A stretch of 64,000 bases of DNA from Thermodesulfobacteriota bacterium (GCA_035559815.1 DATMAT010000057.1:6359-70358); one strand, 5' to 3'. Counted from the stretch's first letter, positions 5,675 through 44,869 are shown. Translations and numbers: made by a program. Notes: generated from the sequence alone by a model not told the origin.

Positions 5675-6115
5675 TCAATGGGCAGGGGCTTCTTCCGTTT
5701 CATGTTCCATCATCTCTTTCCCGTGCTCCATCATTTCCTCGCCTTCCTTCTTCATTTCTTCCGCTGCCTCCTCCATCTTTTCACCGGCTTCTTCCATCGC
5801 TTTACCGGTTTCCTCGGCTGCATCCTTTCCCATCTCGGCGGCATCTTCCATCGCTTCGCCGGCTTTCTCTGCAGCTTCCTCTGCCATTTCCGCCGCATCT
5901 TCAGCCGCACCTACTGCCGCCTTTCCAGCATCTTCCACCATCTCACCGGCTTTTTCTCCAGCTTCTTCCATTGCTTCGCCGGCTTTTTCCGCGCCTTCCT
6001 TCACCGCCTCACCCGCTTCTTCAGTCGGTTTCTCCGCCCTCTCCGGACAGGCGCTCAAACCCACTACAAAAACACCTACCGACAGCACGATAAAAAGCTT
6101 CTTGAAGATTGACAT
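5675..6115 (-). CDS. Acidic Ala/Glu/Met-rich repeat lipoprotein
   Basis: AGGAGGAGG Shine-Dalgarno 7 nt upstream of the ATG. Signal peptide with lipobox VVGLSAC. The mature part consists of repeats such as AGEAMEEAGEKAGEMVEDAGK and ends EEMMEHGKEMMEHETEEAPAH. Confidence 0.6.
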   Translation of the reverse strand: MSIFKKLFIVLSVGVFVVGLSACPERAEKPTEEAGEAVKEGAEKAGEAMEEAGEKAGEMVEDAGKAAVGAAEDAAEMAEEAAEKAGEAMEDAAEMGKDAAEETGKAMEEAGEKMEEAAEEMKKEGEEMMEHGKEMMEHETEEAPAH

Positions 6116-6389
6116 GTCCTACCTCCTCCTTTAAGTATTTTCGCTATTCAATATTGAAAAAAAGCACAAAGTCAGAGCATTATGCAATTTGTGCACTAAT
6201 ATACACCATACCATTCCATTTTGTAAAGGCTTTAACCAACGACATGACCGTCGTCTATTTGCTTCAGAAAATTCGATGTTTAATCAGTCCGGAAAGCCAG
6301 ATAAAATTACAAACTAAGAGTCTTCGTTTAAGTGAATAGGATATCCCGCAGTGCTACTTTAGAGCGAACAACTTTAGGAGGGTCAAGCA

Positions 6390-7169: not shown

Positions 7170-7206
7170 AAAGAGATGTCTAAACTCACTTTAGTTGAGG
7201 TTTATA

Positions 7207-8127
7207 TCACCCGGCTCGTCGTTTTATAATGTTCTTACCAGAGACTCGGCGTGTAAATTCTTTGGCGACTTTGAGAAATGCTTGCAAAACAGGAGACTTA
7301 TTATCACGCTTCCAAGCTACATTTAATTCCATCTTTTTCATTGGCTGCCACAGCTCGCGATAAACCACTCCCTCTCTTTTCAAGTCTTTCATCGATTCGG
7401 GAACTAATGATATACCCAATCCCGTTGCAATAAGTCCAAGTATAGTTTGCATCTGGTTTGCTTCCTGTATTACGTTGGGAGTGAAATCGGCATTCTGGCA
7501 AAGTCCAATGATTTGATTGTAAAGACCACAACCTAGATGGCGAGGAAATAAGACAAAAGGCTCGCTTTTTAATGCTCGAAGAGGTATCTTCTGTTTTGCT
7601 GAAAGAGGGTGATTCTCCGGCAGTGCTACGATAATAAACTCCTCCAGTATGGGTTCAAAAGAAAGCTCTTCATCCCGTATGGGTGAAAGAAGAAAACCAA
7701 CTTGAATGTCCTTGTTATGGAGAGCCTCTATGAGTTGAGCGGTAGTCATTTCTTTTAATTGCAGATGAATATCAGGGAATCGCTCTCTGAAAATCTTTAG
7801 AATGTTAGGAATTACATCATATGTAGCAAAACCCTCAAAACCTACCGTAAGCTCACCAATTTCTCCACGGCTTGCACGCTGAGCGGTACGTATAGACTGT
7901 TCGACCCGCTCAAGTATCCTCCGCGCTTCATCGAGAAATGCTCGTCCCGCCTCAGTCAACTCAATTCTGCGTTTAGTCCTGCGGAGAAGTTCAACCCCTA
8001 ATTGTTTTTCCAGTTGGCGTATTTGCTGACTGAGTGGAGGTTGGGCAATATGGAGTCTTTTAGCAGCCTCACCAAAATGCAGTTCTTCAGCGACCGCGAC
8101 AAAGTATCGCAAATGTCTCAATTCCAT
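7207..8127 (-). CDS. LysR-family transcriptional regulator
   Basis: 306 aa. N-terminal MELRHLRYFVAVAEELHFGEAAKRLHIAQPPLSQQIRQLE helix-turn-helix plus a LysR substrate-binding domain. Confidence 0.9.
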   Translation of the reverse strand: MELRHLRYFVAVAEELHFGEAAKRLHIAQPPLSQQIRQLEKQLGVELLRRTKRRIELTEAGRAFLDEARRILERVEQSIRTAQRASRGEIGELTVGFEGFATYDVIPNILKIFRERFPDIHLQLKEMTTAQLIEALHNKDIQVGFLLSPIRDEELSFEPILEEFIIVALPENHPLSAKQKIPLRALKSEPFVLFPRHLGCGLYNQIIGLCQNADFTPNVIQEANQMQTILGLIATGLGISLVPESMKDLKREGVVYRELWQPMKKMELNVAWKRDNKSPVLQAFLKVAKEFTRRVSGKNIIKRRAG

Positions 8128-24566: not shown

Positions 24567-27392
24567 ATGATTGATTTTTCTTTCCTTCATCAAAAGAGCA
24601 TTAATTCCTATCTAGTCATAATGCTGATTACTTTATCTCTACCCTCGTGCGTAACGATAAAAAAAGCGGATATTAAAGTTCAGGACGAAGGAGCAGTACG
24701 GTTAATCACCGAAGGCGGGAAATTGTACGACCGGGGAAGATATGATGAAGCCCTGGGAAAATTCTCTGCGGCGGAGGCAGAGACCAGCTTGCCCCAGGAT
24801 AAAATTAGGATTGCGGACATATTATCCAAAGGCGGCTTCGACCTCTTCGAGAAAAAGCTCTTTGATGCTGCACTTTCCTACTACAACCAATCACTGAAGA
24901 TAAACAGGGTTTTAGATAACAAGCCGGGACTGGTTAATGACTACAGTTACATGGGAAGTATTTACACGGATATAGGAAAATACGACGAGGCGATCCTTCA
25001 CTTCAATCAGGCCATCGAACTGCAAAAGGACATGAATGATAAAGCCGGAGTAGTTCACAACCTGAATAACCTCGCCAATCTCCACGGCTACCTGGGCGAC
25101 TACCAGGAATCTATAAATCTTCTAAACCGGGCCCTTCAGATTAGCCGGAGCACCGACGTCCCGACCCAAACGGCAAGAACACTGATAAATCTTGCCGCTA
25201 TCGATTTTCGCCTGAGAAACTACGAAAAATCTATTGATTACCTAAACCAAGCACTTCAGATTGCGGATAGGGTAAAAAATGAAAACCTGAAAGCGGAAGC
25301 CCTAAACCTAACCGGCGTCGTCTACAGAGAGCAGGGTGAATTCGATAAGGCTTTAGCCAATTACCTTGCCGCGCTGAAAATCAACAAGAAAGAGGGCGTT
25401 GAAGCTGCAATCATAACCAGCCTTAGCACTATTGGCGAATTGTATAAGGAGACTGGAAGATACGGCCAAGCTCTTCAATACATTCAGGAATCTCTCCACC
25501 TGAGCAGGGAATCGAAAAACCAACTGATGACCGCCGTCAACCTGAATTACATGGGGGAGGTGAGATACAAGCAGGGAAAATACGACCAGGCTCTCAATCT
25601 TTACCAATCATCCTTGGGAATCTTTGAAGAGCTTGGGTTCAGGGACCGGATAGCCAGAAGCTACAACAACATCGGTTACCTGAGAGGGGAAACCGGGCAG
25701 TGGGATTCTGCGATCGAGAACCTGGATAAGGCCATCTCCATCTATAAAGACCTGGGAGACAGGGAGTGGGTCCGCATCTCTCTCTTTGGCCGGGGACTTT
25801 ATTCAGAAGAAAAAGGGGACCTTCTTTCCGCAGAAAAAAACTACAAGGAGGCCGTGGATATATTTGAATCGGTTAGAGAGGACGTCGCCGGGGGCCTGGA
25901 AGCAGAGCAAACCTTCAGCGACGTGAACGTGGAGATTTACGAGAGGCTGGTGTCATTGCTCCTGCGGCTTGGGAAAGACGAGGAAGCGCTCGAGTATATA
26001 GAAAGGAGCAGGTCAAAGAACCTCCGGGACACGTTTCTAAGGAGCGGTATCAGCTCTTTTGACGAGAGAACCAGGGGACTCCTTGAAAGATTTGATGAGC
26101 TTTTCAGAAAAGAGGCTTCCATAAACTACCAGTTGGTGAGGGAAAGAGCAAAGGCATTGCCTAACCCGGAGAAGATAGACAATTTAGTAAAAACATTGGC
26201 CAGGACTAGGGAAGAATTTATGAGAATAAATTCTGCTTTAGAGTCCGAAAATCCCAAGCTGTACGGCCTGCTCAGTATAAAACCGGAAGACGTTGCCGAA
26301 CTGGTAAAAAAGAATAGGCTCCCCGGAGACGTTATCTTTGTAGAGTACTTTATCACCGATAAAGAGACCTACATATTTCTCATGAGCGACAGGGACCTGA
26401 AGGTCAAGACCGTTTCTGCGAAGAAAGAGGAACTTGCAGAATTGGTCAAACTGTTTAGAGACCTGATAGAGCTTAATAAATCCATACCCAGCAACCGCTG
26501 GCGGGATGACCAGAGTGAGGAATACGAACAGGCTATAAAACCGCTCAAGAAGACATCATCGACCCTCTACGCCTACCTCATAGAGCCAATCGAGGCTGAG
26601 ATTGCCCCGGCCGAAACCATAGCCGTGATTCCCTTCGGCTCGCTCCATTACCTCCCATTCAACGCCTTGGCAAAAGAAAGGGATGACGGCACGTTGGAAT
26701 TTCTCATAGAAAGGAAGAAGCTCGTCTATATTGTTTCCGCCTCCGCCAATTACCTGGACGTAGTCCTGGGAAACGGCCGTAAAAGAGGAATCGAGAGTCT
26801 GGTTGCCTTTGGCAACCCGGACCTTGGGGAACCGGACCTCGCCCTTCCCTATTCCCAGGAGGAAGTTAAAGCCATAAAAACACTCTTTCCAAACGCCACC
26901 GTGTTCCTGGGAAAGGATGCTACCAAATATAATTTCGAGAGCAACTGGGGGGTGAATGACATAATCCATATGGCCACGCATGCAGTCGTCAAAGGAACGC
27001 CGTCAATACTCTTGGCCCCTTTAGGCACGGGCAGTCTTACCCTGAAAGACATTACCGGGCTGCCCCCTGCCGAGAACACCCATCTTGTGGTGCTCTCCGC
27101 GTGCCAGGCGGCGGTTGTAAGTGACGAAGACGGCCATGCTGCCGAGGAGCTAAACAGTATAGCTCTCGCTTTCAGCATGGTAGGCACCCCATCGGTTATT
27201 GCCACCCTCTGGAGGATAGAGGACAAAGCTACATTTGAGCTGATGGAGGATTTTTATGAGAATTTAAAGAAAGAGGGCAGATTCGATTACGAGGCGTTGA
27301 GAAGGGCACAGTTAGAGATGCTTAAGAGGCCGGATAAATACGGCCAGCCATTCTACTGGGCGCCCTTTATTCTTATGGGGGTATGGGAGTAG
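24567..27392 (+). CDS. TPR-repeat / CHAT-domain (caspase-like) lipoprotein
   Basis: 941 aa. Lipobox LSLPSC, about 8 TPR units (NLANLHGYLGDYQESINLLNRALQI and similar), and a C-terminal CHAT domain with His (IIHMATHAV) and Cys (VVLSACQAA) dyad contexts. Confidence 0.85.
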   Translation: MIDFSFLHQKSINSYLVIMLITLSLPSCVTIKKADIKVQDEGAVRLITEGGKLYDRGRYDEALGKFSAAEAETSLPQDKIRIADILSKGGFDLFEKKLFDAALSYYNQSLKINRVLDNKPGLVNDYSYMGSIYTDIGKYDEAILHFNQAIELQKDMNDKAGVVHNLNNLANLHGYLGDYQESINLLNRALQISRSTDVPTQTARTLINLAAIDFRLRNYEKSIDYLNQALQIADRVKNENLKAEALNLTGVVYREQGEFDKALANYLAALKINKKEGVEAAIITSLSTIGELYKETGRYGQALQYIQESLHLSRESKNQLMTAVNLNYMGEVRYKQGKYDQALNLYQSSLGIFEELGFRDRIARSYNNIGYLRGETGQWDSAIENLDKAISIYKDLGDREWVRISLFGRGLYSEEKGDLLSAEKNYKEAVDIFESVREDVAGGLEAEQTFSDVNVEIYERLVSLLLRLGKDEEALEYIERSRSKNLRDTFLRSGISSFDERTRGLLERFDELFRKEASINYQLVRERAKALPNPEKIDNLVKTLARTREEFMRINSALESENPKLYGLLSIKPEDVAELVKKNRLPGDVIFVEYFITDKETYIFLMSDRDLKVKTVSAKKEELAELVKLFRDLIELNKSIPSNRWRDDQSEEYEQAIKPLKKTSSTLYAYLIEPIEAEIAPAETIAVIPFGSLHYLPFNALAKERDDGTLEFLIERKKLVYIVSASANYLDVVLGNGRKRGIESLVAFGNPDLGEPDLALPYSQEEVKAIKTLFPNATVFLGKDATKYNFESNWGVNDIIHMATHAVVKGTPSILLAPLGTGSLTLKDITGLPPAENTHLVVLSACQAAVVSDEDGHAAEELNSIALAFSMVGTPSVIATLWRIEDKATFELMEDFYENLKKEGRFDYEALRRAQLEMLKRPDKYGQPFYWAPFILMGVWE

Positions 27393-33179: not shown

Positions 33180-33536
33180 TTATTGGCAAAACTTATCTAC
33201 CGTACAAATATCATAGGTATCACAGAAAGGCCCCCATGAAAACGGCCAGCAATCCGTCACCGGGGAACATTTCTTTGCACACCTACCGCTGCTACACTGA
33301 TTATTACTCTCGCACCGGCTCCCTCTGGGGAGATTACTACCGGAGGGTGGTGGGGGTTGGTCAGCACCTCCGTTCCCCACAGGCCTACTAAAAAGCCACT
33401 GAAGGAGTTGGTCCAAAAATTGCGGACTAACCACATCTCCCGGCAATAGTGAACGTGAGGATCTCTGTTGGTAGTAACCTCTTGTTTTATATAGCGATAC
33501 CTCCGCTGTAAACCCTGGAAGTGTAGATATTCTCAT
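33180..33536 (-). CDS. Leader-bearing Cys-rich protein P9 (118 aa)
   Basis: AAGGAGG Shine-Dalgarno. N-terminus MRISTLPGFTAEVSLYKTRGYY. C-terminal 8-Cys region CESNNQCSSGRCAKKCSPVTDCWPFSWGPFCDTYDICTVDKFC. Confidence 0.7.
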   Translation of the reverse strand: MRISTLPGFTAEVSLYKTRGYYQQRSSRSLLPGDVVSPQFLDQLLQWLFSRPVGNGGADQPPPPSGSNLPRGSRCESNNQCSSGRCAKKCSPVTDCWPFSWGPFCDTYDICTVDKFCQ

Positions 33537-33620: not shown

Positions 33621-34094
33621 CTAAACAAAACAGATGCCCCCATATCCGGGTAGCGTCACAGTGGAACAGGACGCACCGACAAAGGGAATCGGAACACAAA
33701 TTCTATTTCTGCAGAGGCAGGGAGTAGTAGAGAAAAATGTCATAATTGCAGTTCCGGCGATCTGTCCCGATACGCTCGATGTGCGTGCTATAGCGCCCGG
33801 CATATATGCAATCAAGTTACGATCACATTGGCAATCAAGATATCCGCGGCGACCGTAGCAGAGGTCATGTTCCCTACATACTGCATCGACTGCGTCTATG
33901 GGCGGTGTATTTCCGGTTGGATCACCGAATCCGGGCCCGCAGTAATTGCCGTAAACCGGGACGCTGAGTTGTTGCGGCAATACCGGATCTTGTTTGGAGC
34001 GTAGGTTTATCTTTACGCCTTTATTGTCAATGCCGTAACGCTTTATTTGCCTGCCTAAGCTGGCCTCCGCTTTAAATCCTGGCACCTTGTTCAT
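33621..34094 (-). CDS. Leader-bearing protein P8 with a phospholipase-A2-like domain (157 aa)
   Basis: AAAGGAG Shine-Dalgarno. N-terminus MNKVPGFKAEASLGRQ. YCGPGFGD, then about 17 aa, then CREHDLCY, which is the secreted-PLA2 Ca-loop and His-Asp motif arrangement. Confidence 0.7.
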   Translation of the reverse strand: MNKVPGFKAEASLGRQIKRYGIDNKGVKINLRSKQDPVLPQQLSVPVYGNYCGPGFGDPTGNTPPIDAVDAVCREHDLCYGRRGYLDCQCDRNLIAYMPGAIARTSSVSGQIAGTAIMTFFSTTPCLCRNRICVPIPFVGASCSTVTLPGYGGICFV

Positions 34095-34118
34095 TTCATT
34101 CAACTCCTTTTTTTGTAT

Positions 34119-34925
34119 TCACCGGTCGTAGTAAGGTGACATCTTTGTAACCAAGAACGGAAACTCCGACCACAAAAGCGCAATGGCACCTGTTACAAAT
34201 GGGGCTGCAGCACTAGTTTCTCCAAATGTGAGCGACTTGCCATTAGCCCCGAGGCTGGTAATGTTGTCGCCGGGAGCGCTTAGACCTCGCTTTCCGATAG
34301 AACTTCCTAGGTTCGAGTAGTTAATCGGTCTACCTTGAAGGTCGCAGGCAACAACCGGAATAACCCACGTGTGACCGGTAACGGCAGAACTTCCGATAGT
34401 CCCCTGATTCCCAGCCGCCGCAACAACAATAACACCACCCCTTGCAGCATAATCTAGAGCCTTTTCTAATTCGCGCTCACCTTTAGATGATGGTTGTGCA
34501 AGTGCAGCGCTTAGGTTTATTACACGCGCACCTGCATCAATGGTCTCTATGATTGCCCCTGCAAGCTCCTCTGGGGTTGCGCTTGGCAGGGATTTAGCGG
34601 GCTCACCCCAGGTCTGTCTGTTTCCCGATGCCCTCTCTGAAAAAATGGGACGTACAAGCAGTGTGCAATCAGGACAGATTGCCGGAGCTAGAGAACCCCT
34701 CCTACCGCACAAGATGCCTGCCACAAACGTCCCATGCATACAGGCAGCACTGCTTGCTACGGTGTATGTCCCATCCAGTTTTCCAGGAACCTCGCGGATA
34801 TTTTCACCTGTAAGGCTGGGATGGTTAATTATGATGGGGCCATCTATTAACCCAACTGTAATTTCGGGTCTACCGCTTGTGAGTTCCATCAATGCTGTGA
34901 GCTTGACCACATCCAAAGGATTCAT
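34119..34925 (-). CDS. Subtilisin S8 peptidase, second copy, C-terminally truncated and fused to the tail of the PatG-DUF-like gene (possibly decaying)
   Basis: 268 aa, highly similar by eye to the peptidase at 41599-42495 up to LLWSEFP. It then ends FLVTKMSPYYDR, identical to the last 12 aa of the protein at 40062-41006. GLIDGP, HGTFVAG and AAAGNQG are kept, but the Ser motif reads GETSAAAP (Gly to Glu). No obvious Shine-Dalgarno. Confidence 0.65.
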   Translation of the reverse strand: MNPLDVVKLTALMELTSGRPEITVGLIDGPIIINHPSLTGENIREVPGKLDGTYTVASSAACMHGTFVAGILCGRRGSLAPAICPDCTLLVRPIFSERASGNRQTWGEPAKSLPSATPEELAGAIIETIDAGARVINLSAALAQPSSKGERELEKALDYAARGGVIVVAAAGNQGTIGSSAVTGHTWVIPVVACDLQGRPINYSNLGSSIGKRGLSAPGDNITSLGANGKSLTFGETSAAAPFVTGAIALLWSEFPFLVTKMSPYYDR

Positions 34926-35001: not shown

Positions 35002-35283
35002 TGCCATTGTCTTACAAAGAATAGGTTATTGTCAAGGAAAATTTTTTCTCCCTACTTTACTTCTGAGGAAGATGAAAATTACGTAGATACTGTAAAATTT
35101 TTGAGAATGTAGAAAGAGGTGAGTTAAAAGCTATAACAAGCAAAGTCCCCGACTTCACTCAGATAGCTGTAGGAGTTTTGAGGAAGGTGAGAACTTTTCT
35201 TACAAACGATCTGGATTTCAAGGAAATAGAGAGCATAAGAGTTATACAATTAAGTAACTTTAAAACGGTCAAGCAACCTTAAA
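35002..35283 (+). pseudogene. Degraded PIN-domain (VapC-like) remnant
   Basis: Open frame without a start codon reads ...ERGELKAITSKVPDFTQIAVGVLRKVRTFLTNDLDF. The PIN-like ending KEIESIRVIQL is only reached after a 1-nt shift in an A-run near 35220. The N-terminal catalytic region is absent. Confidence 0.3.
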
Positions 35284-35512
35284 TGTCTTTCCGATAAGAA
35301 CGAGTCCTTCTAACTCTTCTCTCTCAAGCTTTCTTCTAATCTCGTCAAATTTCCTTACAGTATCGGGTGCGTAGAATCTCTTACCACATTTTAGACATAC
35401 CTCAAGCCATAACCCTAAGAACTGCCGTGTTAGTTCCACCTCATAGGAGCTTATCAACTTCCTTTTCGACGATTTCCCCTCCACACACAGGACATTTATC
35501 AAATAGCTTCAT
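35269..35512 (-). pseudogene. YgiT-type zinc-finger (MqsA-like antitoxin) gene with an internal frameshift
   Basis: ATG at 35512 overlaps the upstream stop as ATGA and encodes MKLFDKCPVCGGEIVEKEVDKLL, then stops at 35441-35443. The second zinc knuckle (EVCLKCGKRFYAPDTVRKFDEI) continues in another frame, which is the listed ORF 35269-35502. Confidence 0.5.
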
Positions 35513-35847
35513 CCCTTTGTTAAAACCTCAATAATATTTTTCATATTCTCAAATACTTCTTCTACCGATGGCTCTTCACACGGCACATGCTTTCCTGCCT
35601 CCCCAAAGGGATGATAGTGCCATCCCTTCAGATTATCAATTCCATAAATCCTCTCGTTCTTATGTATCAGTGCAAAATCTTTCCTTTCAGTCTCACAGTT
35701 AGCATAAATGTCTATCAGTAAATCTTGTTGAAAAGTAATTCGAACATATAGGTGAGTATTTCGAACTATATTGTATTGAAGCGTAACTAGAGGGAAGAAT
35801 TTCTTAGAGGCGTTATTTATCTCTTCTAAGAAGCGATTTAAATCCAA
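35509..35847 (-). CDS. DUF6516/TumE-like putative toxin
   Basis: 112 aa. RIYGIDNLKGWHYHPFGEAGKH resembles the DN..H.HP...H core I associate with TumE-family proteins. Translationally coupled to the zinc-finger gene. Confidence 0.4.
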   Translation of the reverse strand: MDLNRFLEEINNASKKFFPLVTLQYNIVRNTHLYVRITFQQDLLIDIYANCETERKDFALIHKNERIYGIDNLKGWHYHPFGEAGKHVPCEEPSVEEVFENMKNIIEVLTKG

Positions 35848-35859
35848 AAAGGCACCTTT

Positions 35860-36189
35860 CTACTCTAGGTTTTTAAGTAGTTCAAGCCATTTTTTCTTCT
35901 CAGCCTCTAATCCTTCCCAGACCATGTAATGCCTCTCTACCCGATGAGAGTACTTGTTCTCTATTTCTCCTCTCTCCCAGGCATCTGCAAATTCATTAAA
36001 GGTGCTCCCATATTTTACCTCAAACTTGTAAATTTCCTCTTCACATTCCCGGAGACGCCTAGCCAGATCAGACTTTATCAATTTGAGTATTTTTTCTCCC
36101 GGTGTATCTCCTTCAACATAATCGAAAAATTCGAGTATCTCTTTAGATAGGTCTAACGTAGGCATCTTATTTTCCTTATTTTGACTCAA
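35860..36189 (-). CDS. Hypothetical small helical protein in the TA islet
   Basis: 109 aa, 12 nt upstream of the TumE-like gene. No recognisable domain. Confidence 0.35.
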   Translation of the reverse strand: MSQNKENKMPTLDLSKEILEFFDYVEGDTPGEKILKLIKSDLARRLRECEEEIYKFEVKYGSTFNEFADAWERGEIENKYSHRVERHYMVWEGLEAEKKKWLELLKNLE

Positions 36190-36245
36190 TTAACTACACA
36201 GATTCTACCTTCCTATAATGACAAATGTCAAAAAACTAACTCCAT

Positions 36246-36539
36246 CTAGTGTTCTTCTCGTTCTGCGACAAAGTCCGCCTGTGGTGAGCAAAGTCGAACC
36301 ACTGTCAGCGAGCCAGGAATCTTCGAGAGAGCTTTCCTCACCGCCTCGAGGCTTATGCTCTCATCCACCTCGGCGGCATAGAGTTGCAAGCATTCGACAA
36401 CTAGCCATTCCTCCTCCGAAGGGATTGCTGGCAACTTAGACACGATTAAGGTGACGCGCTCGTGCTCACGGAGGTCAAGCGGTTCCAGCAGACGTAATAC
36501 ACCATTCTCATAAACCGCTTCAAGCCTTTTACTCATCAC
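36246..36539 (-). CDS. DUF104 (AF2212-like) antitoxin-family protein
   Basis: 97 aa. N-terminal LEAVYENGVLRLLEPLDLREHERVTLIV is the typical DUF104 motif. Confidence 0.5.
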   Translation of the reverse strand: MMSKRLEAVYENGVLRLLEPLDLREHERVTLIVSKLPAIPSEEEWLVVECLQLYAAEVDESISLEAVRKALSKIPGSLTVVRLCSPQADFVAEREEH

Positions 36540-36681: not shown

Positions 36682-36930
36682 TCAGAAACAGATCCAACGG
36701 CAGTATCCACCCCAATGAGGCAGGCACACCCGGACGCATGAGGGCTCCACAATAGGCCACCGAAGCAAGTCTGGCCTAAAGAACTGTGTATCTGTGAAGA
36801 GCAATTGCGCTGGATATATGGTTACGTTAGCTTGGTTCAGAAGAGTGATCATCTGGTAATGTTCACTTGTCTTATAGAGTGATACTTCTGCGGTGAATCC
36901 CGGCATCTTCATCTGGTTCATTTTATTCAT
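36682..36930 (-). CDS. Leader-bearing Cys-rich peptide P7 (~82 aa; start uncertain, 36930 or 36921)
   Basis: N-terminus MNKMNQMKMPGFTAEVSLYKTSEHYQ. Putative core after IYPAQ is LLFTDTQFFRPDLLRWPIVEPSCVRVCLPHWGGYCRWICF (4 Cys). Confidence 0.7.
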   Translation of the reverse strand: MNKMNQMKMPGFTAEVSLYKTSEHYQMITLLNQANVTIYPAQLLFTDTQFFRPDLLRWPIVEPSCVRVCLPHWGGYCRWICF

Positions 36931-37029
36931 CCCCACTTCAACAAAATTTTTTGACCTCACTTCCGCTAGGAGATATGTCGTTGCACTTAGTAAATCGTTT
37001 TTCACCCTCCTTAATCAGAGAGCGAAGAG

Positions 37030-37995
37030 TCAGACCGGGATACAACGCCCCGAATCGAAGAGGCAAGTCCAACCAGGTGGACAGCCACTGTTGCCACAAC
37101 ACGACCAACCCGGCGGAGCACACTTTGTGCCATTAGCACAGCAGGAGTGACCAGGCGGGCAGCAACCCCGCCCGCAACACACAGGAGCCCACGACGGACA
37201 GCAATGGTCGCCACAACACCGCTCACCAGATACGCAGCAGCGGTTGCCACAAGTCTGACCCGCCGGGCAACAACCACCGCCGGTGCATACTTCTCCTGGC
37301 CCACAGCAGTGATTGTTACAGACTCGACTAGGTGGACAGCAGCCCTCGATGGTGCACTGCTCTCCCGGAGCACAGCGACGGTTATTGCAGACTCGATCTG
37401 CAGGAGCACAGCCGTCCAGGGTGCACACTTCTTCCGGCGCACAACAACGCTCGTTGCAGACTCGATCTTTAGGGCAGAAGCCGTCCCTAGTGCACTGCTG
37501 CCCATCTGGCACATAACAACCGAAACCGAAGCAGCATCGTTGACCTGGCGGACAGCAGCTTAATGTATATCCGGTTGCCGTTTCATTAAGGATGTGGCAG
37601 CATTCATGGTCTCCCGGGCAACATTCCGGACGCTTTCCGATGCGCCCGCACAACTTCATTTCAGGTGGACAGAGAGGAGGAATGAACTCGCATTGGACCA
37701 AGCACTGTACTCTGCATTCATCACGCAGAATCGCGATTGGAACATCCGGATTATCAATGCGTCCAGCTTTGACGCAGGCACCTACGCAGCGATCAACACA
37801 GGGTTTTTTATGGCAATATTCCATGCACTGATGGTCAGGGTGGCCAGCCCTGAGGCAATCGTCCATACAACGATTCACACCGTTGTATGCCGGGTATATA
37901 GTCTCATTCACTTGGCTAGAAGTCCCAATAGTATAGTAGTGCCCGCTCGTTTTATAGAGTGACCCTTCTGCGGTAAATCCTGGTATCTTGTTCAT
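37030..37995 (-). CDS. Leader-bearing giant Cys-rich repeat protein P6 (321 aa)
   Basis: N-terminus MNKIPGFTAEGSLYKTSGHYY. About 58 Cys by my count, with CCPPG..CC motifs. Three tandem 23-aa units RVCN..CCAPEEVCT.DGCAPAD are also visible as repeated TTGCAGACTCGATCT at nucleotide level. Confidence 0.75.
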   Translation of the reverse strand: MNKIPGFTAEGSLYKTSGHYYTIGTSSQVNETIYPAYNGVNRCMDDCLRAGHPDHQCMEYCHKKPCVDRCVGACVKAGRIDNPDVPIAILRDECRVQCLVQCEFIPPLCPPEMKLCGRIGKRPECCPGDHECCHILNETATGYTLSCCPPGQRCCFGFGCYVPDGQQCTRDGFCPKDRVCNERCCAPEEVCTLDGCAPADRVCNNRRCAPGEQCTIEGCCPPSRVCNNHCCGPGEVCTGGGCCPAGQTCGNRCCVSGERCCGDHCCPSWAPVCCGRGCCPPGHSCCANGTKCAPPGWSCCGNSGCPPGWTCLFDSGRCIPV

Positions 37996-38064: not shown

Positions 38065-38388
38065 CTAAGTTCGAGTAGGGCTGCATCCTTTGAGGCATTC
38101 TCGATAATTCTCATCGCAGATAATACAGTGGGTAGATCCCTTCGGGTTTTCAGGCGTGCCTTCACAACCCTCCAAACACAGGACCCAGGCTATATAGCAA
38201 AGACCTCTACAAAGCGAACGCCCGATCCCGCCAAAAAGCCCAGAACCGGGCGATACAGGTAATGGATTAATAGTCAGTTGAGAAATAACTCTTTGCCCAC
38301 AGTTGCTATAAGCTTGCATCGCTATAGACTGGTACTGCTCACTCGTCTTATAAACCGATGCCTCTGCTGTGAATCCCGGTGTTTTCAT
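38065..38388 (-). CDS. Leader-bearing Cys-rich protein P5 (107 aa)
   Basis: N-terminus MKTPGFTAEASVYKTSEQYQ. C-terminal region LCRGLCYIAWVLCLEGCEG...HCIICDENYRECLKGC. Confidence 0.7.
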   Translation of the reverse strand: MKTPGFTAEASVYKTSEQYQSIAMQAYSNCGQRVISQLTINPLPVSPGSGLFGGIGRSLCRGLCYIAWVLCLEGCEGTPENPKGSTHCIICDENYRECLKGCSPTRT

Positions 38389-38441
38389 TTCATCAACCCC
38401 CATTTATTTCAGATTATCCCTACAGCAGCCGACCTAAACCC

Positions 38442-38693
38442 TTAGGCCATTCCCCCGCCACCACAGACCCCAAAGCACGCACCGCACGTCAAAAAATCTC
38501 CTGGGTCTGGCACAGGCGACATAACAAGGAAAGCCGCACAGGCTAGGCAAGCGGTCATGCAAAACCTGCTTCTGAACATCGCCGGAACGATCCCACTTTC
38601 TTTCATATCCGAACTATAAGAAACCGTATATCGTCCAGTAGACCTGTATACAGAGGTTTCTGCAGTAAATCCAGGCAAATTCATTTTACTCAT
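38442..38693 (-). CDS. Leader-bearing Cys-rich peptide P4 (83 aa)
   Basis: GGAGGTG Shine-Dalgarno. N-terminus MSKMNLPGFTAETSVYRSTGRY. Hydrophobic Cys/Gly-rich core FCMTACLACAAFLVMSPVPDPGDFLTCGACFGVCGGGGMA. Confidence 0.7.
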   Translation of the reverse strand: MSKMNLPGFTAETSVYRSTGRYTVSYSSDMKESGIVPAMFRSRFCMTACLACAAFLVMSPVPDPGDFLTCGACFGVCGGGGMA

Positions 38694-38748
38694 TTTATTC
38701 ACCTCCTTCACACATTGTTCAAAACCGAGATGAGTGCAGTAATCGGTC

Positions 38749-39126
38749 TTACCAGCCGAACCCGACACCTAGCTCGGTGTCGCAGGTCGTATCTGGCACG
38801 TCCCATTCACCCCAAATATTAAACCAAGTGTTTTTACACCGGTCTGGAGGCCGACCTTCAAGACCCGGAGTCGTTCGACAAGCTTCTTCCCACGATACGC
38901 CCCAAGGGATACCCCACAATATGGCTGAAAACTGTCGCCGTCCGCAGCCTGACCCTTCCGTCCACCAACAGCCGCGCTTAGTACAGTGATCTCTCTTGAA
39001 GCTACCCCAGGTCTGGGCCGGCACAAGGCGTCCCATTTCCGTCGGCATGTACTGAAAACCCGCTCGATACTGATGGCTCCCGCGATATAGCGAAGCCTTT
39101 GCGGTAAATCCAGGTATTTTGTTCAT
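38749..39126 (-). CDS. Leader-bearing Trp/Cys-rich protein P3 (125 aa)
   Basis: GGAGGTG Shine-Dalgarno. N-terminus MNKIPGFTAKASLYRGSHQY. The core has 6 Cys and many Trp (GCWWTEGSGC...ILWGIPWGVSWEEAC...NTWFNIWGEWD). Confidence 0.7.
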   Translation of the reverse strand: MNKIPGFTAKASLYRGSHQYRAGFQYMPTEMGRLVPAQTWGSFKRDHCTKRGCWWTEGSGCGRRQFSAILWGIPWGVSWEEACRTTPGLEGRPPDRCKNTWFNIWGEWDVPDTTCDTELGVGFGW

Positions 39127-39177
39127 TTCATTCACCTCCTTTTTTCACTCCCTCACCAGACCCTAGAGACCGAACAC

Positions 39178-39588
39178 TCAGATCAGGGTGCAGAAAGAAG
39201 GACTACATCCTATGAAGGGTGCACATATTCTCCTGCACTTTGTCCCCGCCGGACAACAGCCCTCGTTATTACAGCAGGACGTACCGGGCGGGCAACAACC
39301 ACGAGCACAGCAAGGATGACCAGGGGGACAAGAGTGGGTGCCGCAGTTGGGTCGAGGTGGAGGAGGTGGGGGTGGAGTACAAGATACTTCTTTACAAATA
39401 GGTCCTCCTGTTTCTGGGTCATATCCAAAGCAACAGGTCTTCTGCCCATTTTCACATGGCGTGCACCCTTTAATCTGTTGTAGTACTAAGCCGCTAACTG
39501 ACTTGCTAGTCCAAGTCGATTCAAGCGCATAAATCCCAGCCGTCCTGTAGAGCGAAGCCTCTGCGGCAAATCCCGGCATTTTGCTCAT
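39178..39588 (-). CDS. Leader-bearing Cys/Pro-rich protein P2 (136 aa)
   Basis: GGAGGTG Shine-Dalgarno. N-terminus MSKMPGFAAEASLYRTAGIY. The core has a poly-Pro tract PPPPPPPRP and CCPPGTSCCNNEGCCPAGTKC repeats similar to P6. Confidence 0.7.
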   Translation of the reverse strand: MSKMPGFAAEASLYRTAGIYALESTWTSKSVSGLVLQQIKGCTPCENGQKTCCFGYDPETGGPICKEVSCTPPPPPPPRPNCGTHSCPPGHPCCARGCCPPGTSCCNNEGCCPAGTKCRRICAPFIGCSPSFCTLI

Positions 39589-39657
39589 TTGACTCACCTC
39601 CTTTCTCTTTTTCCTCCGTCCGTATAGAATTCACCTGATAAACCGCCGCGGTCTCAA

Positions 39658-40026
39658 CTAGTCAATCGCTACCAAGCTGTCAACACAGTCACGCCACGGC
39701 TCACTTGCCGGCACCCAACCCCAATAGCAGCCAGGCGGTTCAGGACAGATCTTTGCATACTTAAACCATTGGCATATCCGGCACTCGGTTTGAAAAGTCA
39801 GACCCCAAAATTTCCATGTGCTGGTCGTTTTATCCCAGCACAATTTTTTCATCGTAAACACTACGCCCGGCATTGATGTTGGCACGTCAACGGTAGATAG
39901 TGTGCCCATCAGTCCCTGGGTAAGAACCAACGCACCTACTCTCACGCCTGCACGATTCGGGGCTACTGCATAGCTCATGGCTGATTTGTAGAGCGAGACC
40001 TCTGCTGTAAACTCAGGCAATTTCAT
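39658..40026 (-). CDS. Leader-bearing Trp/Cys-rich protein P1 (122 aa)
   Basis: GGAGGTGA Shine-Dalgarno. N-terminus MKLPEFTAEVSLYKSAMSY. Core LCWDKTTSTWKFWGLTFQTECRICQWFKYAKICPEPPGCYWGWVP...DC. Confidence 0.7.
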   Translation of the reverse strand: MKLPEFTAEVSLYKSAMSYAVAPNRAGVRVGALVLTQGLMGTLSTVDVPTSMPGVVFTMKKLCWDKTTSTWKFWGLTFQTECRICQWFKYAKICPEPPGCYWGWVPASEPWRDCVDSLVAID

Positions 40027-40061
40027 TTCCTTCACCTCCATTCAATTGAATCCGGTCGACC

Positions 40062-41006
40062 TCACCGATCATAATACGGCGACATCTTTGTAACCAGGAA
40101 CGGAAACTCCTCGGTCACATCCACACGGGTAAAGAACTTCTCGGTAACGTCCGTCTGACGATTGGTGAAGGAGAAAATGACATCTACAACCTTGCGTGTG
40201 CCGCTGAGAGGCGAATGACGAACTTCTACCGCTGTCAAAGAAGAGTTTTGAGCAAAAGCCTCCGCAGCTTTAGCATAGATGGCGTTGTATCGTACTGCCA
40301 GATAGTTTAAAGCACGGTGGTCGTCAGTGGCTCCGGCATTGTCAGCTATCTGCATTATCCTCATGAATAGCTCCTCTGCTGCTGGGGTGAACTCCTTTGC
40401 TGACATCTTTTCCGGCTTAGGAATAGATTTGATTAGAGAATCGATATCGAATGAATACATCTGGTCGAACACAACAATAGGCACCATGAGTCCATTGCAC
40501 ATCTCTGGCGGGGCGATTGGCCCTCTCATGCCAATAACCACATCAACATCAGTGGGGCGTGGAGCGGGACGTAAGGCCTCCACTAACATATCCAGGTCCG
40601 CAGGGTCGCGCGGCACCAGAATGTATGTCTCCAAACCCTCAATGGTTAAAACCCAGCACATCTGTCTCACCAGGTAGCGGTTCTGTCTATGGGTCAGAAC
40701 CTTGTGGAGTGCCTCTCGGTCGGTAAGCCCGGCTGTCTTTTCCCGCCCTGTAACTTGGGCGAATTCCTTCTCCACAGCTAAACGAGGAAAGCGGGCCTCG
40801 ACCCTGCCCAGGGCATAAACGAAGCTGGGTGTAACTCCGCCATTTGACCCGGTGGAGCTTCCGCATGTAGGACACCCTCCCCCTCCAGCTTGGGTGGGAA
40901 GAATAGTTCCAGTACGACTTTCAGAAGAGGATACTACTGTTGGTGAGTCTTTCACGTTAACGGCTTGCTCTCCCATCTGTTCCTTCGATTCAACATTTTC
41001 TTCCAT
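40062..41006 (-). CDS. Protein resembling the C-terminal DUF of cyanobactin proteases PatA/PatG (PatG_C/PatG_D-like)
   Basis: 314 aa from the ATG preceded by AAGGAGGAG. FVYALGRVEARFPRLAVEKEF, CWVLTIEGLETYILVP, LMVPIVVFDQMYSF, DHRALNYLAVRYNAIY and FTRVDVTEEFPFLV follow the motif order I recall for the PatG DUF (VYALG..GYDFG.EARRD.F ... DRALNF ... DVS..PV). Recalled from memory, not verified. Confidence 0.5.
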   Translation of the reverse strand: MEENVESKEQMGEQAVNVKDSPTVVSSSESRTGTILPTQAGGGGCPTCGSSTGSNGGVTPSFVYALGRVEARFPRLAVEKEFAQVTGREKTAGLTDREALHKVLTHRQNRYLVRQMCWVLTIEGLETYILVPRDPADLDMLVEALRPAPRPTDVDVVIGMRGPIAPPEMCNGLMVPIVVFDQMYSFDIDSLIKSIPKPEKMSAKEFTPAAEELFMRIMQIADNAGATDDHRALNYLAVRYNAIYAKAAEAFAQNSSLTAVEVRHSPLSGTRKVVDVIFSFTNRQTDVTEKFFTRVDVTEEFPFLVTKMSPYYDR

Positions 41007-41199
41007 GATATTTCTCCTCCTTTCAGGATAGATTTCAAAGGCTTCATAATTAGCCACAAAGACTCAAAGGAAATTGTTAACGAGTTAGCTTACGCCTTTT
41101 GTCGTGTTAGCGAGTTTGCGTGTTATTTTTCTAGCTCGTAAACCAGCAAACACGTTAACCCGCAAACATTGTTTCTTTGTGCCTTGGTGGTTTATATTT

Positions 41200-41418
41200 T
41201 TATCTCGAACGCCTGCCAGAGAAAACCAGCCAACCGTTGAGTGTGGAGGCGCGACGTTCACATCCGCCACACGGTTTAATCCCAATAGTAGACGTGACTC
41301 GCTTAATCGCATCACCCAGTCCAATTTCCTCATCGCTAATGAAACCAGGAAGACGAACCCGGTAAGGCTGTCCTTTAGTCTTACTTCTTTGACCATTTCT
41401 TGTTTCTTCCTTTTTCAT
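41200..41418 (-). CDS. Small basic protein with an LPGF motif and a C-x-x-C pair (72 aa)
   Basis: AGGTGA Shine-Dalgarno. MKKEETRNGQRSKTKGQPYRVRLPGFISDEEIGLGDAIKRVTSTIGIKPCGGCERRASTLNGW. Lies between the S8 and DUF genes. Confidence 0.4.
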   Translation of the reverse strand: MKKEETRNGQRSKTKGQPYRVRLPGFISDEEIGLGDAIKRVTSTIGIKPCGGCERRASTLNGWLVFSGRRSR

Positions 41419-41450
41419 GACATTCACCTATGTTACGCAAATATACATTA

Positions 41451-41598: not shown

Positions 41599-42495
41599 TC
41601 ACCTCCTTAAACCAGACCTTATAATCTGATACGCCCCCCATGCATCAAGCAAGGGTGGAACTACCGTATTTCTCCTTCGCCCGTTCGACCGTGTAATCAC
41701 GACTTTCATATCAGCACCGGTAGCTTTTGGGAACTCTGACCAAAGCAGCGCAATAGCCCCCGTCACAAAGGGAGCCGCAGCGCTCGTTCCGCTGAACGTG
41801 AGTGGTTTGCCATCGGCTCCGAGGCTAGTAATGTTGTCGCCGGGGGCGCTCAGACCTCGTCTCCCTATCGAATTTCCCAGATTGGAGTAACTAATCGGTC
41901 TACCCTGAAGGTCACAGGCAACGACCGGGATAACCCAAGGGTGACGGGTGATAACAGTGCTACCAACTGCTCCCTGATTTCCCGCCGCTGCTACAATCAA
42001 AACGCCTCTCTTTGATGCATAATTCAAAGCCCCTACTAACTCTCGTTCACCTGTGGAAGATAGCTGCGCCATAGCTGCACTCAGGTTTATCACGTGCGCT
42101 CCCGCATCAATGGTCTCGATTAATGCCGCTGCTAGTTCATCGGGAGTGGTACTGGGCATGGGCTCTAGATGCTGGCTGCGGCTATTTCCATTTCCTGACA
42201 TCGTCTCAGCAAAAATAGGACGCACCAACAACGTGCAATCAGGACAGATAGCCGGAGCTACAGAACCCCTCTTTCCGCACAAAATTCCTGCCACGAATGT
42301 TCCATGCAAACAGGCGACACTACTTGCCTGTGCACATGCACCCGCAAGTTTTCCAGGGACCTCACGAATGTCTCCACCTGAAAGATCCGGATGGTCTAAT
42401 AACACGGGCCCGTCAATCAGACCAACTACTATCTCTGGCCTCCCGCTGGCAATATCCATCAAAGCGGTGAGCCTGATTAAATCCAGATGATTCAT
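41599..42495 (-). CDS. Subtilisin-family S8 peptidase without a signal peptide (PatA-like)
   Basis: 298 aa from ATG 42495 (GAGGTGAGG Shine-Dalgarno). Catalytic contexts VGLIDGPVLLDHP (Asp), CLHGTFVAG (His), AAAGNQG (Asn) and FSGTSAAAPFVTG (Ser). No hydrophobic N-terminus. Confidence 0.8.
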   Translation of the reverse strand: MNHLDLIRLTALMDIASGRPEIVVGLIDGPVLLDHPDLSGGDIREVPGKLAGACAQASSVACLHGTFVAGILCGKRGSVAPAICPDCTLLVRPIFAETMSGNGNSRSQHLEPMPSTTPDELAAALIETIDAGAHVINLSAAMAQLSSTGERELVGALNYASKRGVLIVAAAGNQGAVGSTVITRHPWVIPVVACDLQGRPISYSNLGNSIGRRGLSAPGDNITSLGADGKPLTFSGTSAAAPFVTGAIALLWSEFPKATGADMKVVITRSNGRRRNTVVPPLLDAWGAYQIIRSGLRR

Positions 42496-42683
42496 GCGTG
42501 GATTCCTCACCTCAACCCAGTGATAGGAGTTAAAAACTAGATAAAGACTAAAGGAGAACGAGTACTTACAGTTAATCTTTCAAGTGAGCAGAAATAAACA
42601 ACCGGCGGTTATCGTTAATAACCTGATGTTGTGGACAGAAGTTGCTTAGGCTCTTTATAGTTATTGCTCTCCCTCTCAGGGTG

Positions 42684-42753: not shown

Positions 42754-43695
42754 TCAACTGCCCGCCAGAGCCTTAATCATGATCTTCATCACCTCGACAT
42801 TGCTCTGCTTTCCCACCGGGTTTGGGACGATGATCGGAAGTTGAACCCCTGCTTCTCTGTAAGCCTCGAGTCTTTCACGGCACCTTTCGGCAGGGCCAAC
42901 CAAAGCCACCGCGTCCAGTAGGTCATCGGAAAACGCCTCGGCTGGGCTTACACCAGATTTAATCTTCTCCACCACATCGCCAAATCCTAAGTTTGTAATC
43001 AAGCGCTGGTAGAAAGGAAAGCGGGCATAGCCGGAAAGACCGCGCTTTCCGGCGTTTCTGGCAGCTTCCAAGTCGTCGGAGATAAAACAAGGGATTCCAT
43101 TGGTGATGTCGATATCCGAAGGAGCACGGCCGGCCTTTTCCGCACCTCTTTTAACCGCGCCTATCAGCTTCTTCAAATGACCGGGAGTAGCCATATAGGG
43201 CATGATGCCGTCTGCTACCTCGCCGGCCAGTTCCGCCGCTTTTTCGGTCAGCACCGCCGTGTATATCGGGAGATAAGGGAGTTGTCTTTTGATTGTCAAG
43301 AGTGGCGAGCTTCCATCAGCGAAGGACCTGACCGCTGTCACATATTTTCGCATTTCCTCGATCGGGTCTTTCATGTCAATTCCGAAGCGGTCATTCACCG
43401 GCTTATGACTGACACCCAACCCAAGCACCATCCTTCCGCCTGAAATTTCCTGAACAGTAAGGGCCTCGGCCGCACATATAACCGGCTGGCGCATGTAGAT
43501 ATTGGTTATCCATGTACCCACTTTAATTTTCGAGGTCGCCTCGGCAAAAACCTGGGCGTTAGCCAGGGCGCTGTAGGGTGGCACCTCCGGGGAAAATATC
43601 GCCTCGAATCCCCCAGCCTCCGCTTCTTTGGCTAAAGCGCGAAGGTCGTCTACGCTGCATCCCCATACCGGTGAAATGGTCGCTATCCGTTTCAT
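42754..43695 (-). CDS. Luciferase-like (LLM class) flavin/F420-dependent oxidoreductase
   Basis: 313 aa. TIM-barrel LLM pattern (FEAIFSPE..., GRMVLGLGVSHKP). Confidence 0.75.
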   Translation of the reverse strand: MKRIATISPVWGCSVDDLRALAKEAEAGGFEAIFSPEVPPYSALANAQVFAEATSKIKVGTWITNIYMRQPVICAAEALTVQEISGGRMVLGLGVSHKPVNDRFGIDMKDPIEEMRKYVTAVRSFADGSSPLLTIKRQLPYLPIYTAVLTEKAAELAGEVADGIMPYMATPGHLKKLIGAVKRGAEKAGRAPSDIDITNGIPCFISDDLEAARNAGKRGLSGYARFPFYQRLITNLGFGDVVEKIKSGVSPAEAFSDDLLDAVALVGPAERCRERLEAYREAGVQLPIIVPNPVGKQSNVEVMKIMIKALAGS

Positions 43696-43811
43696 TCATC
43701 TTCTCCTCCTTTTATTTTGGCCACGAATTCTCACCAATAGTCTCGAATGAAAAATGAAAATGAATAAAAAACTGGTATTAGCATTTATAGATTCTAAATA
43801 AGACGCAAAAC

Positions 43812-43896
43812 GTCATTGCCGCATGCATTTGCGGTAATCCAAAGCACTGATGGATGCCCGATTGATCCGCCGGTTTAAACGGGGGACGGGCATGAC
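43812..43896. repeat. MITE-like element (GTCATTGCCGC...GCGGTAATCC...ATGGATGCCCGATTGATCCGCCGGTTTAAACGGGGGACGGGCATGAC)
   Basis: Combines modules seen separately at 15686-15802 and 15817-15856. Confidence 0.6.
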
Positions 43897-43975
43897 CATC
43901 ATAAGACATACAGAACAGGAGTGAACGAGGTTTTAATTTGTGATAATTCGTGTTCATTCGTGGCTAAATAGTCAT

Positions 43976-44869
43976 CTAATACTGATTAATCACATCCCGG
44001 TAAAAATCGGGGCGGAGCAAAGACTCATCTCCTCTTTCCAAGACCGCTCTTATCTCTTCCAAGACCCTTTCCTTATCCTGGGGGAATCTTGCTTTGATAG
44101 GAAGATAATTAGAGATGTGATTCGAAAAGAAATACCCGTCAGTCAGGTTTGTATTCTCGACGATAATTTCTAGCTCTTTTATCATCTGAAACTTATCCGG
44201 GAGTTTGAACTTTCCGTCAAGCCACTCCTGGTAAATCGGAGCCCCCGGGCGGACCTGAAGGGAAAGTGCCCCTACATACTCAGGGTCAGTATCGGTCAAG
44301 AGCCTTCCGGTCGCATATGCATGCTCAAGGCTTCTATCCACCCCGCCAACCCCGAGAAGAACCATGGCCGAGTTTTTGACCCCGGCCTCTTTAAGGATTT
44401 TTGATGCTCTTACCGTCTCCTCGTAATTTGCCCCTTTTTTAATCCTTTCTAGAACTATATCGTCTCCGCTTTCAAATCCGATGTAAACCATCTCCAACCC
44501 GAGGTCCCTCAGCACTTTTAAATTCTCAGCTCCTTTTCTCAGGATGTCGCTAACGTTTGCATACATGGTAATTCGCTGCAAGTCCGGACGTTTCTCCTTT
44601 AAATACTGCAAAATCTCGACCAGCTTTTTCTGGGGCATGACCAGGGCGTTGCCATCGGCGATGAACACCCGGTTGAAATCATATCTCTCCACAGCTTCAT
44701 CAATAATAGTCTTGATCTCATCTATGGGGCGCATACGAAACCTTTGGGTATCTTTCCGATACATGGCGCAGTAGGTGCACTCGTTATGAGAGCAGCCTAT
44801 CGTAGCCTGAAGGATGAAGCTATTTGCCTCGCTGGGAGGCCGGAAAAGCGGCATGGAATATTCAATCAT
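43976..44869 (-). CDS. Radical SAM protein
   Basis: 297 aa. The cluster motif reads GCSHNECTYC, which is C-x4-C-x2-C rather than the canonical C-x3-C-x2-C, followed by a TIM-barrel-like GFESGDD segment. Confidence 0.7.
   Translation of the reverse strand: MIEYSMPLFRPPSEANSFILQATIGCSHNECTYCAMYRKDTQRFRMRPIDEIKTIIDEAVERYDFNRVFIADGNALVMPQKKLVEILQYLKEKRPDLQRITMYANVSDILRKGAENLKVLRDLGLEMVYIGFESGDDIVLERIKKGANYEETVRASKILKEAGVKNSAMVLLGVGGVDRSLEHAYATGRLLTDTDPEYVGALSLQVRPGAPIYQEWLDGKFKLPDKFQMIKELEIIVENTNLTDGYFFSNHISNYLPIKARFPQDKERVLEEIRAVLERGDESLLRPDFYRDVINQY

Follow-up and report, generated by a model that had tools for sequence, protein, structure and literature searches.

A 64,000-nt stretch of DNA from a Thermodesulfobacteriota bacterium (GCA_035559815.1 DATMAT010000057.1:6359-70358), here called the window, carries a gene for an unusually Cys-rich protein, termed P6. 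What is such a protein for, and what happens to its cysteines? The initial annotation described a leader-bearing protein of 321 amino acids (aa) with about 58 Cys (~18%), partly built by tandem duplication, that might be either a disulfide-knotted extracellular scaffold or a thiolate metal-binding protein. The figures proved exact (58 Cys in 321 aa, or 18.07%, including 15 CC doublets by translation), and the picture of a very Cys-rich protein behind a leader unrelated to Sec signals, with part of its length gained by tandem duplication, is supported. With moderate confidence, P6 is read here as a disulfide-rich pro-protein that is the cargo of a split PatA-like maturation system, named for its likeness to the cyanobactin proteins PatA and PatG.

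The P6 gene, its leader and its partner genes

The P6 open reading frame (ORF) can be divided into the following parts, with positions counted from the first letter of the window.

37030..37995, (-): P6 gene, 321-aa pro-protein, stop codon at 37030-37032 (ORF and translation)
37888..37995, (-): predicted leader, residues 1-36, MNKIPGFTAEGSLYKTSGHYYTIGTSSQVNETIYPA (consensus, distance to box 2, AlphaFold2 disorder)
37936..37983, (-): leader box 1, residues 5-20, PGFTAEGSLYKTSGHY (matches the consensus)
37888..37899, (-): leader box 2, residues 33-36, IYPA, putative protease site
37690..37881, (-): N-terminal helical CX3C domain, residues 39-102, 10 Cys (Cys motifs and AlphaFold2 helices)
37492..37671, (-): 12-Cys module, residues 109-168, with its Cys in the granulin-type order C-C-CC-CC-CC-CC-C-C
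37258..37464, (-): three tandem 23-aa (69-nt) units, residues 178-246 (Tandem Repeats Finder, unit identities, positions in homologs, covariation of junction Cys)
37033..37257, (-): C-terminal ladder of CC doublets, residues 247-321 (sequence; similarity to the C-terminus of the neighbouring protein P2)

Homologs of P6 are few, with 13 matches among 5.8 billion clusters, all of them metagenomic. Those of full length, at 35-58% identity, keep both the leader and the Cys columns. With a profile built from the homologs, a set of 1.84 billion representatives yields 523 proteins at E ≤1e-3, of which 15 reach E ≤1e-30. The gene context is kept in locus L001, and a Shine-Dalgarno-like AGGGG lies about 9 nt 5' of the ATG. 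Judged from sequence, P6 is a real gene. Its core gave no Pfam, NCBIfam or PDB sequence match. The CCPPG context that was said to be common to P6 and P2 is indeed shared, at 62% identity over 37 aa.

P6 is not alone in carrying its leader. A leader pattern search recovers 10 ORFs in the window, all on the minus strand, that share M..PGFTAEASLYKTS..Y and start with M..(M/I/L)PGFTAE(A/V)SLYKTS..Y. Over 168 leader ORFs the consensus of this first box is P-G-F-T-A-E-A-S-L-Y-K-T-S-G-H-Y-R, in which P, F and A were preset by the search pattern; Y16 of the box is found in 149 of the 168. In 94 of 163 ORFs there is a second box, [VI][VIL]P[QA], whose end lies 32-36 residues past the P of PGF; shuffles place it there in 19 ORFs on average and in 30 at most. 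In the AlphaFold2 model, which lacks Met1 so that 1 must be added to obtain P6 numbering, residues 1-37 are disordered (predicted local distance difference test, pLDDT, below 50) and the fold begins at model residue 38. Because of the position of box 2 and this start of the fold, a 36-residue leader and a 285-residue core are predicted, and the leader would be cut at or near A36/Y37. No NCBIfam leader model matches the leader, and its consensus contains no GG site.

Upstream of the leader ORFs lie three genes that appear to form the core of the system. One of them encodes the PatG_D and PatG_C domains, the cyanobactin domain of unknown function (DUF), as a protein of its own.

41599..42510, (-): S8 subtilase (S8a), putative leader peptidase (Pfam Peptidase_S8, 2.5e-27)
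41200..41427, (-): conserved 75-aa ORF between the S8 and PatG_D/C genes (homologs in 60 loci)
40062..41057, (-): standalone PatG_D + PatG_C (cyanobactin DUF) protein, 331 aa (Pfam)

Both domains of the 331-aa protein score above their gathering thresholds (PatG_D 1.4e-32, PatG_C 5.5e-35). On the NCBIfam PatA/PatG model (TIGR03895), S8a aligns with positions 1-179 at 113.5 bits and the DUF protein with positions 276-597 at 38 bits, both below the cut-off of 421. Since the two align in order on this one model, the arrangement looks like a split PatA. The 75-aa ORF between them has an RLPGF that is invariant in 59 of 59 homologs, followed by IGLGD and GIKPCGGC..R..LN, and searches with Pfam, NCBIfam and PADLOC models gave no match to it. 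Its product may be a pseudo-leader, a regulator or an adaptor. The PGF motif in it resembles box 1 of the cargo leaders.

Two other identities for these genes were considered and rejected. S8a scores 128 bits on the mycosin model of the type VII secretion system, slightly above its PatA/PatG score and still below the mycosin cut-off, and the system is present in archaea and diderm bacteria. For an anti-phage defence system, PADLOC gives a generic subtilase match to S8a alone and none to the 75-aa ORF, the PatG-DUF protein or P6.

The distribution of the system was followed with the DUF protein as query in a scan of one genome per species, which gave 128 relatives, of which the best 80 were analysed. 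These 80 are 54-79% identical and come from more than 15 phyla, archaea included. Carriers include Acidobacteriota, Nitrosospira and Nitrosovibrio isolates, Brocadia, cyanobacteria, Chloroflexota, Actinomycetota, Bacteroidota, Verrucomicrobiota and Spirochaetia, as well as the archaea Methanoperedens and Nitrososphaerales. In 69 of 79 loci, the 4 kb downstream of the PatG_D/C gene hold 1-6 leader ORFs on its own strand, at a median gap of 49 nt. An S8 gene lies upstream of it, again on its strand, in 70 of the 79, and the 75-aa ORF directly upstream in 55. In RefSeq the orthologs are named 'S8 family peptidase', 'hypothetical protein' and 'cyanobactin maturation protease PatG family protein', and the cargo 'hypothetical protein'. 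Full-text literature, in which subscription journals are thinly covered, yielded no account of the leader, of the split PatA arrangement or of the cargo family. The system is widespread and apparently undescribed.

Cysteines, repeat units and predicted fold

A protein of either proposed kind was thought unexpected behind this leader. Cys-rich cores are instead the rule among 167 leader ORFs from about 80 loci, where the median content is 9.4% Cys and the commonest counts are 6, 4, 8 and 10. With its 58 Cys, P6 ranks second to an archaeal protein with 122. The latter is encoded by a leader ORF of about 530 aa at 5636-7219 of locus L053 (Nitrososphaerales archaeon TH526), just downstream of the PatG-DUF gene, and has about 23% Cys and CCPxG-type repeats. 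Of the cargo regions that contain any Cys, 166 in number, 152 have an even count (binomial p=2e-30).

The three consecutive 23-aa units were found exactly as first described, at residues 178-246: unit 1 is residues 178-200 (37396-37464), unit 2 residues 201-223 (37327-37395) and unit 3 residues 224-246 (37258-37326). Tandem Repeats Finder detects the repeat at 37340-37468, with a period of 69 nt, 1.9 copies and 78% matches. In a sliding self-comparison of P6, the best 69-nt identity is 0.74 at an offset of 69 and 0.70 at an offset of 138; the mean for 200 codon shuffles is 0.50 and their maximum 0.565. A nucleotide motif reported as recurring about every 70 nt corresponds to the 15-mer TTGCAGACTCGATCT. 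Its spacing of 69 nt agrees with that report, but it occurs twice (at 37385 and 37454), not three times.

By its DNA the unit repeat is beyond chance, but not recent, and the ongoing expansion first proposed for these three units is not borne out. Pairs of units are just 65-70% identical in DNA and differ by 5-9 synonymous and 8-9 non-synonymous codons. Homologs that are 47-58% identical overall agree with P6 in their units, in the order of these and in the Cys losses particular to each, and each of their units matches its positional counterpart best. For example, unit 1 of the homolog P0001 shares 16, 13 and 14 identities with units 1, 2 and 3 of P6, and its unit 2 shares 11, 17 and 11. Because these homologs share the ordered units, the triplication is older than the split of the family into its present members. 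Elsewhere among them the number of copies does vary, with a fourth unit in P0002 and a half-unit insertion in P0003 and P0006. A recent expansion would leave nearly identical DNA copies and a number of units that changes from one close relative to the next; this combination was not found, and the extra unit is confined to P0002.

The junctions between units bear on how the cysteines are used. In 88 distinct junctions, the second Cys of '...GCC' was compared with the extra Cys of the '...xCC' in the next unit. Both were present in 58 junctions and both absent in 24, with 6 discordant (Fisher p=2.5e-16). Units 1 and 2 of P6 belong to the 'both absent' case, with 5 Cys each, so that their bonds must cross unit borders. 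The same type of repeat is also found in proteins that by eye have Sec or lipoprotein signals (P0035, P0046) and fused to a GH5 cellulase (P0087), which points to extracellular use. From these patterns and the model described below, disulfides are favoured over metal ligands for the P6 cysteines.

AlphaFold2 predicts a disordered leader, then three helices (model residues 38-48, 53-80 and 86-100) carrying the motifs CX3C, CX3C, CX3CX3C and CX3CX3C, and after them short beta-hairpins that form a long ladder. The model has a mean pLDDT of 75.6, with values above 90 for model residues 121-230. On this model the mature core would be an elongated rod with a continuous granulin-like stack of hairpins. 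Granulin, reported from eukaryotes, consists of four stacked beta-hairpins that form a twisted ladder with six disulfides (PMC4527844). P6 residues 109-168 share the Cys order of granulin (PF00396), the hairpin ladder predicted for P6 would likewise be pinned by disulfides from CC doublets, and both proteins grow by tandem modules. The loop lengths of this part of P6 are 6, 8, 5, 13, 5, 4 and 7. Those of granulin are 5-6, 5, 8, 6, 5, 4 and 5-6, so that four of the seven differ. The Pfam Granulin model does not match P6 even at E up to 10, and granulin-5 appears in a profile-to-PDB search at a non-significant E of 0.45. The predicted P6 ladder is also continuous over about 200 residues, where granulin is made of discrete 6-kDa modules, and the protein is prokaryotic and without a Sec signal. 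As judged from sequence and model, P6 resembles an extended granulin ladder yet falls outside the granulin family. Its Cys spacing, granulin-like in order and different in its loops, has not led to any well-known domain family.

Proposed function and its alternatives

The following scheme would account for these features. The first ~36 residues of P6 would serve as a recognition leader, distinct from a Sec signal, through the boxes PGFTAE.SLYKTS..Y and IYPA. Accessory proteins would bind this leader and the S8 protease would remove it at or near A36/Y37. The 285-residue core would fold in an oxidising compartment, its 58 Cys being read as 29 disulfides. The resulting rod would begin with a short helical domain stapled by CX3C motifs and continue as a hairpin stack in which CC doublets staple neighbouring hairpins, the ladder having been lengthened by an ancient tandem triplication of the 23-residue unit. 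Mature P6 would then act outside the producer as part of a rapidly diversifying arsenal of disulfide-rich effectors. The gene, its leader family and linkage, the layout of the repeats and the disulfide signatures are shown by the analysis; where the leader is cut, what the PatG-DUF and 75-aa proteins do, how the core leaves the cell and what it targets are inferred. A broader version of the scheme is offered tentatively: a proprotein-convertase-like system would mature a hypervariable and horizontally mobile disulfide-rich arsenal, the DUF would recognise the leader, and P6 would be a granulin-like ladder with about 29 bonds. For the PatA/PatG DUF a structure has been solved, and no role is known (PMC4259220). 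Since the standalone DUF is conserved at 54-79% across phyla and tied to one leader, its proposed recognition of that leader is directly testable.

An extracellular effector role is suggested because the repeat occurs in proteins with Sec signals and because of the siblings of P6, which include mini-proteins with 4-10 Cys and a phospholipase A2 (PLA2).

39658..40041, (-): sibling cargo ORF, 6 Cys (leader pattern, Cys count)
39178..39597, (-): sibling cargo P2, 20 Cys, CCPPG ladder (leader pattern, similarity to the P6 tail)
38749..39135, (-): sibling cargo ORF, 6 Cys (leader pattern, Cys count)
38442..38768, (-): sibling cargo ORF, 6 Cys after the leader (leader pattern, Cys count)
38065..38403, (-): sibling cargo ORF, 9 Cys (leader pattern, Cys count)
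36682..37005, (-): sibling cargo ORF, 4 Cys, true start probably internal at MNKMNQMKMPGF (leader pattern, Cys count)
33621..34103, (-): sibling cargo, 10 Cys, its core of the secreted phospholipase A2 type (Pfam)
33180..33536, (-): sibling cargo ORF, 8 Cys (leader pattern, Cys count)

The PLA2 sibling scores 24.4 bits on Phospholip_A2_4 (cut-off 23.9) and has an E of 3e-6 on Phospholip_A2_1, with the motifs YGNYCGPG and CREHDLCY. The leader therefore appears to deliver an enzyme too, and not small peptides alone.

Several points weigh against this scheme. Across the 80 loci no transporter, immunity gene, modifying enzyme or disulfide-forming enzyme is conserved, nor is any further gene family. 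With neither a Sec signal nor a conserved exporter, the exit of a 285-aa core is left unexplained. By inspection the S8, 75-aa and PatG-DUF proteins have no signal peptides, and maturation would therefore be cytoplasmic, where disulfides are not normally formed. The strict box 2 motif is missing from 69 of 163 leaders, and cleavage at that box is a prediction. The AlphaFold2 model was built from 14 sequences, with a predicted template modelling score of 0.47 and low confidence after about residue 270. The statistics of Cys parity and junction covariation ignore shared ancestry. Finally, the PatG DUF of the patellamide pathway is reported not to bind its most plausible substrates (PMC4259220).

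In the likeliest of the alternatives, the mature protein would be an extracellular scaffold with a structural or adhesive role, for instance in an envelope, matrix or spore-like coat, and not an antagonistic effector. A long rigid rod, as predicted, would suit such a role, similar repeats are appended to the cellulase and to large surface-type proteins, and no immunity gene is evident. Against this stands the company that P6 keeps, since its array also holds a PLA2 gene and small cargo genes that are hypervariable; with 10 genes, the array in the window is the largest found among the loci analysed. The closest loci are L006, from a Spirochaetia metagenome-assembled genome and the nearest of all, and L002. 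Cargo sets differ even between such close loci, and L006 has no P6 homolog. This turnover fits conflict better than a structural role, and the P6 family is also rare. A scaffold is for these reasons considered unlikely.

Could P6 be cut further? As the multi-core precursor of a peptide made on the ribosome and modified after translation (RiPP), it would have its units excised as small peptides, or its Cys converted to thioethers by a nearby radical SAM enzyme. The units do resemble one another and stand in tandem, a single cyanobactin precursor can contain more than one core, and genes for a radical SAM protein and a luciferase-like protein lie near S8a and, in L002, beside a P6-family gene. 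The units are not self-contained, however: units 1 and 2 have 5 Cys each and a Cys pair lost together across their border, and bonds that cross borders argue against excision of units as separate peptides. No box-2-like or other recognition sequence flanks them, and in the AlphaFold2 model they make up a single continuous ladder with pLDDT above 90. Of 82 loci in all, just the two closest relatives (L006 and L002) have the radical SAM and oxidoreductase genes together with the system, and no RiPP maturase model matched the radical SAM protein above its cut-off; on these grounds the genes were rejected as members of it. A RiPP precursor of this kind seems improbable.

The second option in the initial annotation, a thiolate metal binder, fares no better, while the other structural option, the disulfide-knotted extracellular scaffold, fits the evidence. 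P6 would in that case be a metallothionein-like binding or storage protein, kept reduced in the cytoplasm, with a leader for some other purpose. It has the 18% Cys and many CC and C-x-x-x-C motifs, all proteins of the core system appear cytoplasmic with no conserved exporter, and its helical domain has a very weak Pfam similarity to Vanabin-2 (E 3.3). Metallothioneins likewise combine high Cys with CC and C-x-C-type motifs. They do not typically contain aromatic residues, of which P6 has 17 (8 Tyr, 6 Phe and 3 Trp). P6 differs from them also in the even Cys counts of its family, whose common values of 6 and 10 misfit Cys4 sites, in the loss of junction Cys by pairs, and in a regular hairpin ladder that AlphaFold2 predicts confidently without metal. 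The same repeat behind Sec signals and on a cellulase, and a PLA2 sibling of the secreted type, also speak against metal storage in the cytoplasm, and we consider it very unlikely.

That P6 is an untranslated chance reading frame in repetitive GC-rich DNA is scarcely credible, for although several ORFs overlap it in other frames, the conserved leader and Cys columns of its full-length homologs, the profile matches, the context kept in L001, the synonymous changes between repeat units and the AGGGG upstream of the ATG all argue otherwise.

Known systems compared, and neighbouring genes

The disulfide-rich cargo system outlined here is closest to the cyanobactin PatA/PatG proteins and their precursor PatE, in which an S8 subtilase and a PatG_D/PatG_C module also occur beside leader-bearing precursors with hypervariable cores. 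Here the protease and the DUF are on separate genes with the conserved 75-aa ORF between them, and their model scores are far from the family cut-off, as given above. The leader is unrelated to that of PatE, and the cargo C-termini are not conserved and contain no signal for C-terminal macrocyclisation. The 10 cargo ORFs have no PatE-type precursor match in Pfam or NCBIfam, and no YcaO heterocyclase (PatD) or prenyltransferase (PatF) turned up when the ORFs from 22 to 53 kb of the window were scanned with Pfam. The cores are 30-500 residues long and Cys-rich, and one is an enzyme. Cyanobactins are mainly from cyanobacteria, whereas the present system spans its >15 phyla with archaea among them.

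Other systems are alike in part. Nif11/NHLP leaders, prochlorosins and double-glycine bacteriocins also combine one leader, arrayed unrelated cores and a dedicated protease. The loci described here differ in that they have no Gly-Gly site, no conserved C39 or ABC exporter of the kind that double-glycine bacteriocins use, and no conserved modifying enzyme. Venom peptide precursors such as conotoxins have a conserved pro-region and a hypervariable disulfide-rich core, and are processed by subtilisin-like convertases. The likeness to the P6 system may be one of logic only, in that paralogs (a PLA2 among them) stand side by side and an S8-family protease would remove the pro-region. We know of no sequence homology between the two, nor of a signal peptide and endoplasmic reticulum pathway or a dibasic site in the P6 system, which is prokaryotic.

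If the proposed reading is right, soil and water bacteria and archaea would hold a large unannotated source of disulfide-rich peptides and proteins. Its carriers include cultured Nitrosospira strains, the anammox bacterium Brocadia and ammonia-oxidising archaea. P6 would show how far a CC-stapled hairpin ladder can extend and, with the 122-Cys archaeal protein, may provide a hyperstable scaffold. A second hyper-Cys cargo family, of about 230 aa with 32-38 Cys and a hydrophobic N-terminal core segment, was observed in L017, L019, L026, L043 and L056. Its tail reads NNCIFGG.PCG.KCCPPGLQCC...KTSCL, and its hosts are Flavobacteriaceae, cyanobacteria, Acidobacteriota and Brocadia.

The array in the window also contains a second protease gene.

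34119..34925, (-): S8b, a truncated second paralog of S8, joined to the final 12 PatG_C codons (junction DNA alignment)

S8b and S8a share 73% identity along 256 aa; where S8a has GTS next to the catalytic Ser, S8b has ETS. The S8 part breaks off after 'EFP', where it is fused in frame with the end of PatG_C, and two more cargo genes follow. From its sequence it looks like an orphan cassette left by deletion or recombination. A PatG_C tail fragment similar to the S8b fusion lies inside the cargo array of L006 (11443-11595). Between the cargo array and S8b, at 35269-36539 (-), are four small ORFs, one with an AF2212-like (PF01954) antitoxin-type domain; this stretch may be a toxin-antitoxin insertion.

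The radical SAM gene (with an unusual CX4CX2C motif, by eye) and the F420-type luciferase-like oxidoreductase gene are at 42754-44869 (-), just upstream of S8a, and are about 80% identical to their counterparts in L002 (1097-3062) and L006 (5801-7638). In L002 the P6-family gene P0007 directly follows this pair, with no S8 or PatG-DUF genes between. Elsewhere in the window, at 24567-27392 (+), a 941-aa TPR and CHAT-domain protein is encoded, adjoining an NHL-repeat protein at 22199-24127.

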